The position numbers were made by a program, and so were the translations under genes. Source: Escherichia coli (lineage in GTDB: Bacteria; Pseudomonadota; Gammaproteobacteria; Enterobacterales; Enterobacteriaceae). From it: 64,000 bases of DNA. The stretch lies in NCBI RefSeq assembly GCF_041248615.1, contig NZ_CP158426.1. One strand, given 5' to 3'. Shown here piece by piece: positions 30,719 through 34,503 of the stretch. Numbering within the stretch: position 1 is the first letter of the stretch; each line of letters opens with the position of its first letter. The notes beneath the pieces were generated by a model. It worked only from the letters and a program-made list of their open reading frames with translations. It was not told the DNA's origin and searched no databases.

Positions 30719-31320
30719 ATGGTAAAGTCCTGTCAGTCCGCGCGCTGGCTTCCTTCAACGCTTTGTCGTAATTTTTGTCAGTCTGCTCGTAGTCTGGAAT
30801 GCCCGGAATTCCTCAACGCTATGCCACTGTTCAGGCGCGGTGTGATGAGAGTGGCGTCGCTGGGTTATGCCTTTCCGGGCACGATTCTGGCGATTGGTTT
30901 TCTGACTCCCTAAATGACCGCTGGCTGGCGGAACTACTGGATTACAGGGGGTTACCTTTAATGTCTGTCGGTGTCCTGTTGGTGATTTGCTGTACGATGC
31001 GATTTCAGGCAATAGCCATCGGCGCACTTGATGTCCGGCTGGGACGTATACCAGAGTCACTGGAACAAGCCTCACGTCTGCTGGGAGAAAATGGTACAGG
31101 AACTTTTGTTCGGGTTCACTTTCCTGTGTTGCTCTGGTGAGCAGTGCCCTGCTGGTTTTCACTGATGCGATGAAAGAACTGCCAGTAACACTTCTTTATG
31201 CTGAAGCAGCCCGTGGAACTTTTGAAGAAGGGGCCATCTCTGCTTTAATGATTGTTCTTGCAGGGACATTTCCGGTTATTTTGTTTGTTCCAGCTGAAAG
31301 ACTGAAATCAGAGGATTGAT
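30719..31320 (+). pseudogene. ABC transporter permease remnant (iron(III)-type AfuB/FbpB-like)
   Basis: Fragments in several frames: SLGYAFPGTILAIGFLTP, LDVRLGRIPESLEQASRLLGENG, LPVTLLYAEAARGTFEEGAISALMIVLAGTFPVILF. Confidence 0.45.
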
Positions 31321-31321
31321 T

Positions 31322-31988
31322 ATGTCTGAAGAAACAGCTTTATGTATTAATGATGTCCATGTTGTTTATCCCAATAGCCCATATCCTGTATTGCGGGGCG
31401 GGGGGTATGTCAGTCTGTAAAGGTGAACTGGCATGTCTGCTTGGTACATCAGGTTGTGGAAAAACAACAGTACTACGTGCTGTAGCTGGTTTTGAGCGCC
31501 TGAACAAGGGGAAATTTTTGTATCACAGCATTGTGTGGCCAGCGCAGATATGCATTTTCCGCCGGAGAAATGTCATGTCGGTATAGTCTTTCAGGAATAT
31601 GCGCTCTTTCCCCACCTTACAGTTTCACAAAACGTGGCTTTGGTCTGAGAAGACTGCCGAGAGATGTACAGCGAACCAGAGTTACAGAACTGTTGAAAAT
31701 GGTGGATTTATTCCACTATTCAGACAGCTATCCTCATGAACTTTCAGGAGGTCAGCAGCAACGTATTGCCCTTGCAAGGTCACTGGTTCCAAATCCAGAT
31801 ATCCTGTTGCTAGATGAACCATTTTCCAGCTTGGATAAAAAACAAGGGTAGGACTGAGCCGTGAAGTTCGTGATATTTTGCATGAGGCAGGGCAGACAGC
31901 ACTTTTAGTCACTTACAGTGAACACGAAGCATATTTGATGGGGGCTCGTATTAGATATGTTAAAAACGGACAATATTGGGAAGGGTAA
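31322..31988 (+). pseudogene. ABC transporter ATPase remnant (frameshifted)
   Basis: Walker A LLGTSGCGKTT, signature [15 protein letters not shown], Walker [13 protein letters not shown] distributed over more than one frame. Confidence 0.55.
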
Positions 31989-32353
31989 CCTTGCCAGCAG
32001 ACTGTCAAGATGTATTAAACAGGTCGATTAGCTGTAGGCGGGATAGCTCGCGGGATAAATCATCTGAGAATGTGCCATTTTCCGGGCTGTTATGGGGGAC
32101 AGGCATTGCTGGTTGTTGGTTCGTTGATGGAGGGAAAGCTGCAGCACAGATAATGGGGCTTTAGGAAAAGGAAAGACATAATAACCACGACAAAGTGACT
32201 ATCAAAGTGGGCCAAGGACATTTGAATGTTTGAGATAATAAATATTGTAATGAAGCTGAGGCTATTGCTACCACCACACACTACAGAACCTGCACCATTG
32301 GATGCCAAGAACAACTGTCGAGCCTGTTTAGGATTCTGTGTAAATGCCTTTTC

Positions 32354-33562
32354 TCAGAAGTGACCGTCCAGGCGGTCACCGAACTCGATAATAAAGCGGC
32401 TCATTGCCATTCGCCAGTCCTTCAACGGCATCGTCCATTTCTGGGACGCAGACTGGATTGCCAGCCACACCACTTTTTTCACCGAGTCGTCTGTCGGGAA
32501 CACTTTACGCTTTTTGATCGCATGGCGGATCACGCTGTTTAGCGACTCGATGGCATTCGTCGTATAGATCACTTTGCGGATGTCCGTTGGATAAGCGAAG
32601 AACGTGGCAAGATTCGGCCAGTTAGCCTGCCAGCTTCGGCTTATCTGAGGATAGCGACTGTCCCAGGCCGCAGCGAACGCTTCCAGTGCCTGCTGACCTG
32701 CCTCTTCCGTGGGAGCCTGATAAATCGCTTTCAGGTCGCGAGTGACGGCTTTGTAGTCCTTCCATGACACGAAGCGCAGGCTGTTGCGCACCATATGCAC
32801 GATGCATAACTGGATGCGGGCCTTCGGATATACTGTGTTGATGGCATCCGGGAAGCCTTTCAGGCCATCCACACAGGCGATGAGGATATCGTTCAGACCG
32901 CGGTTTTTCAGTTCAGTCAGCACATTGAGCCAGAACTTCGCCCCTTCATTTTCGGCCAGCCACATACCCAGCAGTTCTTTCTGACCTTCGATATTGATGC
33001 CCAGTGCCAGGAACACCGATTTGTTGATGATGCGACTGTCCTGCCGAACTTTCAGGACGATACAGTCAAGATAAACAATGGGGTAAACAGCATCCAGTGG
33101 TCGGTTTTGCCATTCTACAACCTGCTCCATCACGGCATCGGTAACCTTTGATATCAGTGCCGGTGAAACATCTGCGTCATACAGTTCTTTGAACGCAGCG
33201 GCTATCTCACGGGTGGTCATCCCTTTGGCATACAACGAGAGGATCTGGTTATCCATCCCGGTAATACGGGTCTGATTTTTCTTTACCAGTTGTGGTTCGA
33301 AGGTACCGTCACGATCGCGCGGAGTACGCAGTTCCAGTGGACCGTCGCCTGTGATAACGGTCTTTGTGGAATAACCGTTGCGGGAGTTAGCTCCTGGTCT
33401 GGACTGATTTTTCTCATACCCAAGATGGTGTGTCATCTCTGCATTGAGAGCGGCTTCAACGCTGAGCTTTTTCAGCAGCCGATCAAACTGACTGAGGTCT
33501 TCAGGGGTTTTGAGGTTTTTGGCCAGTTCGTTAGCCAGAGCCTGTAACTGTTTTTCGTCCAT
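32354..33562 (-). CDS. IS256-family transposase (copy B)
   Basis: 402-aa ORF identical to copy A. Confidence 0.85.
   Translation of the reverse strand: MDEKQLQALANELAKNLKTPEDLSQFDRLLKKLSVEAALNAEMTHHLGYEKNQSRPGANSRNGYSTKTVITGDGPLELRTPRDRDGTFEPQLVKKNQTRITGMDNQILSLYAKGMTTREIAAAFKELYDADVSPALISKVTDAVMEQVVEWQNRPLDAVYPIVYLDCIVLKVRQDSRIINKSVFLALGINIEGQKELLGMWLAENEGAKFWLNVLTELKNRGLNDILIACVDGLKGFPDAINTVYPKARIQLCIVHMVRNSLRFVSWKDYKAVTRDLKAIYQAPTEEAGQQALEAFAAAWDSRYPQISRSWQANWPNLATFFAYPTDIRKVIYTTNAIESLNSVIRHAIKKRKVFPTDDSVKKVVWLAIQSASQKWTMPLKDWRMAMSRFIIEFGDRLDGHF
32731..32847 (-). CDS. astA: EAST1 enterotoxin gene (copy B)
   Basis: Position mapped from copy A; reverse complement of 32845-32847 is the ATG. 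Confidence 0.65.
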   Translation of the reverse strand: MPSTQYIRRPASSYASCIWCATACASCHGRTTKPSLAT

Positions 33563-33779
33563 AAATTAACCTTCATTTGATGCTGGATTGAACATATCAA
33601 AATCAGGCAATTACACAAATCTATGTACAGGCTCCAACTGTCCGAATACATAGAAATGCTCAGATAAAAGTGTTTATGTCTCATCCGGCATGAAAACGAT
33701 GAGCACATTATCTACAATCCACAGGCCCTCCTATTTTCCCGCTTATACATTCCCCATCTTCCATTTTTCCTCACCCGCG

Positions 33780-33850
33780 CCGGCACCACACTGTCATCTT
33801 TCTGAGGTTTTACTGTCTTACACATGTAATAAAAAGTTATTTTTCTGCAA
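33780..33850 (+). promoter_or_regulatory. ugpB-type promoter with Pho-box-like repeats
   Basis: CTGTCATCTTTCTGAGGTTTTACTGTCTTACAC contains CTGTCAT-type half sites ~100 bp upstream of the ugpB-like start. Confidence 0.45.
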
Positions 33851-33929
33851 TTCGGGCATGATATGTAATCCCGCGAGCATAAAACGAGTGAATTTGCACA
33901 TCAGGTACAACAAGCAAGAGAGATAAACG

Positions 33930-34503
33930 ATGAAACCGTTACATTATACAGCTTCATCACTGGTGCTCGGACTGGCGTTAATGGGCAATGCACAGGCAGT
34001 GACGACCATTCCGTTTTGGAACTCTATGGAAGGGGAAATGGGCAAAGAGGTGGATACAACTGGAAAACTTTAGCGCCAGGAACGGTCTGCCGTTTGCCAG
34101 CAAAAACAACGGTTTTGACGCCACGGACGCGGTGCTGGAGTTCAACAAGCCGGAGCAGGTGAAACACATCGTCATGCTCGAGGAGATGAACAAGAAGGGC
34201 GACTTCATCTACGTCGGGCGTAAGGATGAATCCACCGAGAAGTTCTATAGAGGTGATTGCGCGATGACCACCGCCTCTTCCGGTTCTCTTGCCAACATTC
34301 GCGAGTACGCCAAATTCAACTACGGCGTAGGCATGATGCCTTACGACGCTGACGCGAAAGATGCACCACAAAACGCCATTATCGGCGGAGCCAGCCTGTG
34401 GGTGATGCAGGGCAAAGATAAAGAAACGTATACCGGCGCAGGCGAAAAGCTGGCGGTAGGGGAATCATCGGATCTTTCTGCTCATCCGGCGTTATCTCCA
34501 TAG
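33930..34503 (+). pseudogene. ugpB-like glycerol-3-phosphate binding protein, internal deletion and 3' truncation
   Basis: N-terminus [30 protein letters not shown]...; stop at 34071; later segment [24 protein letters not shown]...[12 protein letters not shown] in another frame. Confidence 0.6.

Follow-up and report, generated by a model that had tools for sequence, protein, structure and literature searches.

UgpB is the partner of a permease pair of the UgpAE type, and not of a fused permease of the FbpB type. Traces of both kinds of transporter occur in the DNA described here, a stretch of 64,000 nucleotides from Escherichia coli (the window), where an interval at positions 30,719-34,503, downstream of the phosphatase gene phoX, holds broken permease and ATPase genes of an ATP-binding cassette (ABC) transporter and a broken copy of ugpB, the gene of a solute-binding protein (SBP). 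A PhoB site spans 18 bp, in which an AT-rich spacer of 4 bp separates two direct repeats of 7 bp that resemble CTGTCAT, in an 11-bp register (PMC4447250). Chromatin immunoprecipitation sequencing (ChIP-seq) places the site of the E. coli ugpB gene at TGTCATCTTTCTGACACC, and many PhoB sites in this species are transcriptionally inert (PMC10294691). A preliminary description of the window had tentatively suggested that phoX, the ABC remnants and the ugpB copy, the latter with an intact Pho-box promoter, are the relic of one phosphate-starvation uptake module.

Our analysis argues for another origin. With a probability of roughly 85%, the interval is a patchwork of cargo, riddled with insertion sequences (IS) and made of at least three unrelated pieces, within a decayed integrative element. 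The first piece would be a self-contained phoX cassette, the sole part likely to be still functional, probably with a PhoB-type promoter and a terminator of its own. The second would be the terminal part of an FbpABC-type Fe(III) importer, which would have lost its SBP gene and two thirds of its permease at the joint with phoX and then acquired frameshifts. The third would come from the promoter-proximal part of a diverged ugpB locus of Escherichia. Illegitimate recombination together with IS activity would have put these dead pieces beside the living phoX.

Results and Discussion

The phoX cassette and its joint with the permease remnant

The features on which the argument turns first are listed below. 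Position 1 of the window corresponds to position 2435672 of NZ_LT599825.1, the chromosome of E. coli NRZ14408, whose segment 2456671-2480671 matches the 24 kb around the interval at 100%.

28573-30771, + strand: phoX cassette, delimited by alignment with plasmid copies that have other flanks
28603-28620: Pho-box-like site TGTTATATTTCCGTAACA, scored at 11.5 bits by a position weight matrix (7th of 127,966 window positions)
28689-30668, + strand: phoX coding sequence, intact, 659 aa with a twin-arginine translocation (Tat) signal (Pfam PF05787, E 1e-165)
about 30691-30718, + strand: hairpin terminator of phoX (terminator scan), common to the plasmid copies
30772-31319, + strand: 3' remnant of a fused FbpB-type permease (tblastn with the Klebsiella pKPN-262 protein)
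31322-31988, + strand: ABC ATPase pseudogene, full-length and frameshifted (tblastn, residues 3-218 of 227, in all three frames)

The alignment of three contexts puts the left edge of the cassette about 115 bp before the phoX start codon and its right edge about 100 bp past the stop. Many IncF plasmids from E. coli and E. albertii carry phoX at 93-94% nucleotide identity, followed either by a convergent gene annotated as 'esterase-like activity of phytase' or by unrelated DNA; in the window, no more than about 10 bp lie between the cassette edge and the first permease-derived sequence. We read this junction as a recombination breakpoint that truncated the permease. A single event would have placed phoX by the transporter and deleted fbpA together with two thirds of fbpB, so that, arranged like this, the two would never have worked as a unit. 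This joint recurs at 99.9-100% identity in 54 complete genomes and also, with 98.9% identity, in another island, that of strain Br_54_kylling; it is old relative to the spread of the island.

Candidate PhoB sites were scored with an 18-column weight matrix built from the other 58 ChIP-seq PhoB sites, besides that of ugpB, in Table 1 of PMC10294691. The matrix was used instead of a strict pattern because the ugp boxes are too degenerate; the strict Pho-box pattern CTGTCATAWAWCTGTCAY, with up to three mismatches allowed, has no match in the window. The Pho-box-like site of phoX starts 86 nt before the start codon and is followed 10 nt downstream by TAGACT, and its position is conserved in the plasmid copies (7.3-10.0 bits), consistent with a phoX gene that may be regulated by PhoB.

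Origin of the ABC transporter remnants

Frameshifted permease and ATPase remnants had been noted downstream of phoX, and tblastn detects both, the permease as a 3' stump and the ATPase as a full-length but broken gene. The permease remnant covers residues ~379-554 of 562, spread over three reading frames by two frameshifts and a 13-codon deletion; its pieces are 85%, 85% and 71% identical in amino acid sequence to the Klebsiella homologue, and the first ~378 codons, i.e. the N-terminal two thirds, are missing. The ATPase remnant, with at least three frameshifts and in-frame stops, reaches 74% amino acid identity to the Klebsiella ATPase and is of the 227-aa type that lacks a C-terminal regulatory domain. 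Its Walker A, signature and Walker B (ILLLDEP) motifs are readable across three frames, and Pfam ABC_tran matches two of its open reading frame pieces. By descent it is a member of the FbpABC type, and it is non-functional. A tblastn search of window positions 30001-32400 with the Klebsiella SBP revealed no fbpA-like SBP homologue; this gene is deleted in the window.

The closest annotated intact relative in a nucleotide search (68% identity) is an operon of K. pneumoniae pKPN-262 with genes, in this order, for an SBP of 345 aa, a fused permease of 562 aa and a short ATPase of 227 aa. Its SBP matches the Bordetella pertussis FbpA (PDB 1y9u, E 1e-149) as well as many FbpA/HitA/FutA iron-binding proteins, in agreement with the iron(III) type that the preliminary description had tentatively assigned to the fragments. 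We infer that the remnants are of the iron(III)/FbpBC type and have no link to phosphate, the substrate being assigned only through the SBP of the relatives. The preliminary description had itself named membership of an unrelated transporter family as a result that would speak against its module, and this is what was found: since the ABC fragments belong to an unrelated, iron-type family, phoX, the ABC genes and ugpB were never one uptake module.

A search with the reconstructed permease tail against one genome per species (100,044 species) returned 80 related loci. The nearest are those of Buttiauxella and Cedecea (74-76% amino acid identity), followed by Klebsiella sp. and Cedecea sp. (64%). 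Of the 80 loci, 70 encode an FbpA-like SBP, whose gene directly precedes that of the permease in the six enterobacterial loci that were looked at; none of the 80 has a homologue of PhoX or UgpB within 10 kb. Intact fbp-like loci do exist, then, but an intact counterpart of the whole arrangement, which it had been proposed to look for, is not among them, as none of them has phoX or ugpB. A search of 5.8 billion proteins gave nothing closer than matches of 84% (a 161-aa fragment) and 78%, the latter being a permease from a chromosomal SBP-permease-ATPase locus beside cob genes, without phoX.

As a separate observation, the closest intact fbpABC-like operon, that of Buttiauxella agrestis (4080-11262 of the extracted locus), lies two genes downstream of amn (AMP nucleosidase), which in E. 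coli is PhoB-activated (PMC10294691). This is probably a coincidence.

These data bear directly on the idea of a single PhoB-controlled organophosphate module, in which a UgpB-like SBP, ABC membrane and ATPase parts and the periplasmic hydrolase PhoX would have acted together. In its favor, phoX, the ABC genes and ugpB lie on one strand within 6 kb, Pho-box-like sites occur at both phoX and the ugp fragment, and the nearest named NCBIfam models for the permease and ATPase include PhnU2 and PhnT2 (putative 2-aminoethylphosphonate transporter subunits), next to polyamine and sulfate transporter subunits. All of these, however, stay below their cut-offs: PhnT2 scores 218 bits with the reconstructed ATPase (cut-off 457.7) and PhnU2 29 bits with the permease (cut-off 593), while the ferric model NF008513 scores 168.5 bits with the reconstructed ATPase (cut-off 496); the intact Klebsiella proteins likewise fall under every NCBIfam equivalog cut-off. 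A phosphonate (Phn-type) transporter was considered as a separate possibility and rejected on these scores and on the FbpA nature of the relatives' SBP. The single module has, in our view, a very slim chance. In the relatives the SBP is of the ferric FbpA class and its gene precedes that of the permease instead of following it, and the known partner of UgpB, a UgpAE pair, differs in type from a fused FbpB-like permease. The synteny (0 of 80 relatives, and plasmid phoX copies without ABC genes) and the junctions (a permease cut at the edge of a cassette that has other flanks elsewhere) are equally unfavorable, and so are the terminator that phoX has of its own and the ~360 bp of unrelated spacer that precede the ugp DNA. 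The single module proposed in the preliminary description does not hold.

The ugpB fragment and its promoter

The third piece comprises the following features.

33672-33929, + strand: homologue of the livF-ugpB intergenic region, 258 bp (alignment with the K-12 and resident promoters)
33781-33852, + strand: ugp Pho-box array, partly degraded (weight matrix)
33930-34446, + strand: ugpB pseudogene (blastn against K-12-like, resident and island-type ugpB)
34447-34983, - strand: IS66-family tnpA remnant that truncates ugpB (Prokaryotic Genome Annotation Pipeline, PGAP; plasmid matches to IS66 tnpA, from about position 884-908 of the query onwards)

The internal deletion that had been reported for this gene, beyond the second copy of an IS (copy B, see below), is real and amounts to 461 bp. 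The gene starts at 33930 (MKPLHYTAS...), with its start codon, signal peptide and ribosome-binding site conserved. Codons 1-42 (33930-34055) are joined to codons ~195-325 (34051-34446) at a 5-bp microhomology, TGGAT (34051-34055), and because 461 is not a multiple of three the frame is shifted, leaving a 47-aa stump (33930-34073). Homology to ugpB ends at about 34446, at the IS66 tnpA scar, so the part beyond codon ~325 of 438 is absent. The gene would have been killed by a microhomology-mediated deletion and an IS66-associated truncation, and would then have drifted neutrally. RefSeq lists the stump as WP_001470085.1, a 'hypothetical protein' made of the signal peptide plus 24 residues; this entry is an annotation artefact of the frameshifting deletion.

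The coding pieces are 93-95% identical in nucleotide sequence to E. coli ugpB alleles. Some 12 of the substitutions unique to the window ugpB are nonsynonymous and 7 synonymous, as against 16 and 54, respectively, between an intact island-type paralogue (see below) and K-12, a pattern that marks the window copy as long dead. No undeleted form of this ugp allele was found: the exact 40-mer of its promoter, searched in 241 million metagenome records, retrieved two contigs, both with the deletion. Overall, the same lesions are present at 99.9-100% identity in 54 complete genomes and in these two contigs, and the decay is old and shared among strains.

Another origin considered for the ugpB piece was a recent duplication of the host ugp locus, caught by IS activity. 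No ugpAECQ genes lie beside the fragment; the only set is that of the resident locus, 2 Mb away, where ugpBAECQ is intact (NZ_LT599825.1 403290-408323). The livF-ugpB intergenic homology of the window extends to -258, past the limit at -157 of the orphan ugpB cassettes described below, as such a duplicate might. However, the fragment is only 87% identical to the resident locus over 313 bp of its 5' piece and 93% over 396 bp of its 3' piece, and an identical decayed fragment occurs in 46 genomes of varied background. On the 87-93% identity a recent duplication was rejected; we give it virtually no chance. The preliminary description had also allowed that the piece might be a duplicated chromosomal segment with no link to phoX. 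Of this, the duplication fails, and the lack of a link at the operon level stands, given the spacer and the movement of phoX with the ABC remnants only (see below).

The window promoter is 85% identical to the resident one over -160 to -1, a homology that, judged from the alignment, no doubt exceeds chance. When the two are compared, as had been suggested, the regions prove homologous but the PhoB array of the window is partly eroded. CTGTCAT-type repeats are present as claimed, one of them exact (33791-33797) and the others degenerate at 11-bp phase; the promoter can hardly be called intact, however, with its main site at 4.0 bits and a 1-bp deletion. Sites 1-5 of the array score 12.1/15.3/8.9/9.8/7.3 bits in K-12 and in the resident locus, and 11.6/4.0/11.1/4.7/3.9 bits in the window. 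The fall of the ChIP-defined site 2 from 15.3 bits reflects a change of its second half-site from CTGACAC to CTGAGGT, and the deletion, in an A tract, puts the promoter-proximal sites off the 11-bp register. The surviving sites of 11.6 and 11.1 bits rank 6th and 9th of the 127,966 window positions; ChIP-bound sites range from 6.6 to 23.4 bits (median 15), and both survivors lie below their lower quartile (12.9).

A lingering regulatory role, as a PhoB decoy or as a promoter for the 47-aa stump or for an antisense transcript into the IS66 scar, would fit the high rank of these two sites and the retention of a ribosome-binding site and start codon, in front of what PGAP calls a protein. Nevertheless such a role has only a slim chance: the strongest PhoB site is lost, the register is broken, many E. 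coli PhoB sites are inert in any case (PMC10294691), the substitutions are near-neutral and the stump is a leftover of the deletion. At most, the residual Pho-box-like sites might bring about some PhoB binding and a dead-end transcript.

The spacer, IS1414 and the mobility of phoX

Between the ABC and ugp pieces, and around phoX, the following features were delimited.

31989-32319: spacer between ABC and ugp DNA
32320-33634, - strand: IS1414 copy B (IS256 family, 1,315 bp), with a 402-aa transposase (PF00872, E 3e-119)
32312-32319 and 33635-33642: 8-bp target duplication CAACTGTC flanking IS1414 copy B
25815-25931 (+ strand) and 32731-32847 (- strand): astA (EAST1 enterotoxin) variant MPSTQYIRRPASSYASCIWCATACASCHGRTTKPSLAT in IS1414 copies A and B, respectively
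26359-33634: IS1414-mobilised unit of 7,276 bp, containing IS scars, phoX, both ABC remnants and copy B
26360-26422: solo IS1414-like terminus at the left end of the unit, 86% identical to an IS1414 end

The spacer is not homologous to the ugp locus or to the sequence that follows intact fbp-like operons; 121 bp of it (32062-32182) are weakly similar (72.6%) to a Shigella pINV stretch annotated as ISSfl4 ORF3. Before IS1414 copy B was inserted, the ATPase remnant already lay next to the ugp fragment, with ~360 bp of spacer between them. Copy B is 99.5-100% identical to annotated IS1414 and forms a 100% inverted repeat with copy A. It is absent from the island of strain SCU-115, which is otherwise 99.9% identical, and likewise from the two metagenome contigs with the island promoter 40-mer. 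The target duplication and the absence in SCU-115 make copy B a late simple insertion, one that would have entered the spacer after the ABC and ugp pieces had come together. In fact, the window has three IS elements more than SCU-115, namely IS1414 copies A (25028-26341) and B and ISEc12 (36581-39161), each with an 8-9-bp target duplication, and IS activity in this lineage is thus recent and ongoing. In strain TUM1886 an IS1414 lies in the same spacer, at another position and in another orientation.

A second, 100% identical copy of the 7,276-bp unit is present at ~562.4-569.7 kb of NZ_LT599825.1, between yhdZ and rrnD, flanked by a 9-bp target duplication (GATTTGATG). This copy, its target duplication and the solo terminus indicate that IS1414 moved phoX, and the dead genes beside it, as a pseudo-compound transposon. 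The phoX gene is thus present twice and intact in NRZ14408, once on this IS1414-mobilised transposon; it is in this strain a mobile phosphatase gene, and IS1414 has made one copy of its 7.3-kb unit already. The ugpB fragment lies outside the unit.

Orphan ugpB, a phytase-like gene and a possible accessory Pho set

Some islands carry an intact ugpB that has a Pho-box promoter of its own but no ugpAECQ; downstream of it come an IS110 pseudogene and a phytase-like gene. Among 5,426 complete E. coli genomes, 203 have this unit, in an AGI-3-like island of the selC region, and many of the 203 are from avian or extraintestinal strains (including BEN2908); the BEN2908 genome paper makes no mention of ugpB, phoX or the phytase gene in AGI-3. 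NRZ14408 itself has the unit at NZ_LT599825.1 77827-81981, beside setC/yicL. In 19 genomes a block of phoX and truncated permease (phoX-fbpB') lies about 10 kb away, inverted, in the same island. Br_54_kylling is an example, with the phoX block at 7687-10220 and the ugpB-phytase unit at 20162-24316 of the extracted locus, so that phoX and the phytase-like gene are ~13 kb apart. The island phytase-like protein is 92% identical in amino acid sequence to the one encoded convergently with phoX on F plasmids; its gene has a conserved Pho-box-like site of 12.4 bits at -80, followed 9 nt downstream by TACAAT or TATTAT. The orphan ugpB array scores 12.9/11.6/9.6/8.7 bits, and from the substitution pattern the gene looks selectively maintained, as under purifying selection. 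Of 25 promoter states specific to the island type the window fragment has 14, including a 4-bp insertion before the ribosome-binding site; in its 3' piece it has only 6 of 13 island-type states.

These observations raise the possibility of a looser association, in which phoX, the orphan ugpB and the phytase-like gene travel together on Escherichia islands and plasmids as a phosphorus-scavenging set of genes that PhoB would regulate and that would be transcribed independently, with the ABC remnants as hitch-hiking junk. The 203 genomes with the ugpB-phytase unit (NRZ14408 among them), the 19 of these with phoX-fbpB' nearby and the pairing of phoX with the same phytase-like gene on F plasmids all point that way, and so do the Pho-box-like sites of 11.5-12.9 bits at all three genes (with -10-like hexamers 9-10 nt on at phoX and the phytase-like gene) and the 14 shared promoter states; the co-occurrence figures are raw counts, uncorrected for phylogeny. 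We nevertheless regard it as unlikely, if worth keeping in mind. The window and orphan ugpB copies differ by 5-9% and the phoX blocks of the two islands by 1.1%, so that the neighbourhood was not simply inherited; 184 of the 203 ugpB-phytase islands lack an adjacent phoX of the Br_54_kylling type, and IS1414 carries phoX without ugpB. In any phoX-ugpB-phytase association the ABC remnants have no part.

A more specific and rather doubtful version would see an accessory Pho regulon on mobile elements, formed by PhoX, the orphan UgpB and the phytase-like esterase, each transcribed separately from a promoter with a predicted Pho box. Such a set might, again with low probability, have been assembled repeatedly, on IncF plasmids and on two chromosomal islands. 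Its orphan UgpB would need the resident UgpAEC or would have to act alone, for example as a periplasmic binder or chaperone, a suggestion that we make with little confidence. The window could then be a run-down state of the set, with phoX alive and copied by IS1414 and ugpB dead, which we likewise think unlikely. If it exists, the combination of phoX, orphan ugpB and the phytase-like gene may be a horizontally transmitted addition to the Pho regulon that has gone unstudied, and this accessory set is the only lead in the present material worth follow-up.

Several observations weigh against a patchwork of unrelated cargo. phoX and the ugp promoter and gene, both derived from the Pho regulon, lie 3 kb apart in ancestral coordinates, a spacing of two Pho-regulon elements that somewhat exceeds what random cargo would lead one to expect. 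In 19 other genomes a single island holds both phoX-fbpB' and an intact orphan ugpB, and some historical association between phoX and ugpB may therefore have existed. Two Pho-box-like sites of 11-12 bits also remain upstream of the ugpB stump, which may thus be less than fully silent in transcription. We still favor the patchwork. Its homologies, lesions and junctions, the order in which the IS elements entered and the absence of conserved synteny are observed, and PhoB control of phoX, remaining activity of the ugp promoter and the sequence of the older events are inferred.

Setting of the interval and existing annotation

The setting is a heavily decayed integrative element, whose TIGR03756/03757 conjugation genes are broken and whose IS scars number in the dozens; a tyrosine recombinase (43930-45117) abuts ynjA-xthA. 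An Rfam scan of 26300-36600 found no RNA family. RefSeq/PGAP annotates the interval and its flanks as follows.

28689-30668: PhoX family protein
30765-31319: 'iron ABC transporter permease', frameshifted, without N-terminus
31322-31988: 'ABC transporter ATP-binding protein', frameshifted
32354-33562: IS1414 transposase
33930-34073: 47-aa 'hypothetical protein'
34051-34452: partial 'extracellular solute-binding protein'
34379-34983: broken IS66 tnpA pseudogene

The permease, ATPase and ugpB remnants are thus already known as RefSeq pseudogenes of known families, and the pieces between 30772 and 34446 encode no working protein. We found no paper on this NRZ14408 island. The finding is a minor one, concerning remnants of well-known families and no lost pathway; it does carry a caution, that in IS-rich islands illegitimate recombination can mimic operons by joining thematically similar fragments.

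Elsewhere in the left part of the island, an apparently intact extra amiC (Tat-exported amidase; 8940-10199) and iha (adhesin/siderophore receptor; 18824-20911) stand as isolated live genes amid IS110, IS3, IS66 and IS21 wreckage.

Comparison with known systems

The phoX cassettes of IncF plasmids are the nearest counterpart of the first piece, at 93-94% nucleotide identity over promoter, coding sequence and terminator and with the Pho-box-like site kept; unlike in the window, the DNA downstream of them is never an ABC remnant. The second piece shares with FbpABC Fe(III) importers (class-3 FbpA) the order of permease and then ATPase and the short, 227-aa ATPase, whereas those importers have an SBP gene, a complete two-module permease of ~560 aa and intact frames.

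The third piece can be compared with two systems. With E. coli ugpBAECQ it has in common the homology from -258 to codon 42 and from codon ~195 to ~325, as well as the position of the Pho-box array; that operon, in contrast, has no deletion, a full ugpB of 438 codons and linked ugpAECQ genes. The orphan island-type ugpB of BEN2908 and Br_54_kylling resembles the fragment in its detachment from ugpAECQ, its location on a mobile island and the shared promoter characters, but it is intact, and its upstream homology stops at -157 (-258 in the window).

Finally, IS1414 copy B agrees with the described element that carries astA/EAST1 in length (1,315 bp), in its 402-aa transposase of the Mutator family, in its 8-9-bp target duplications and in the presence of astA. 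The difference is that, in the present case, 7.3 kb of DNA next to it, phoX included, was mobilised by a single copy acting with a solo end remnant.

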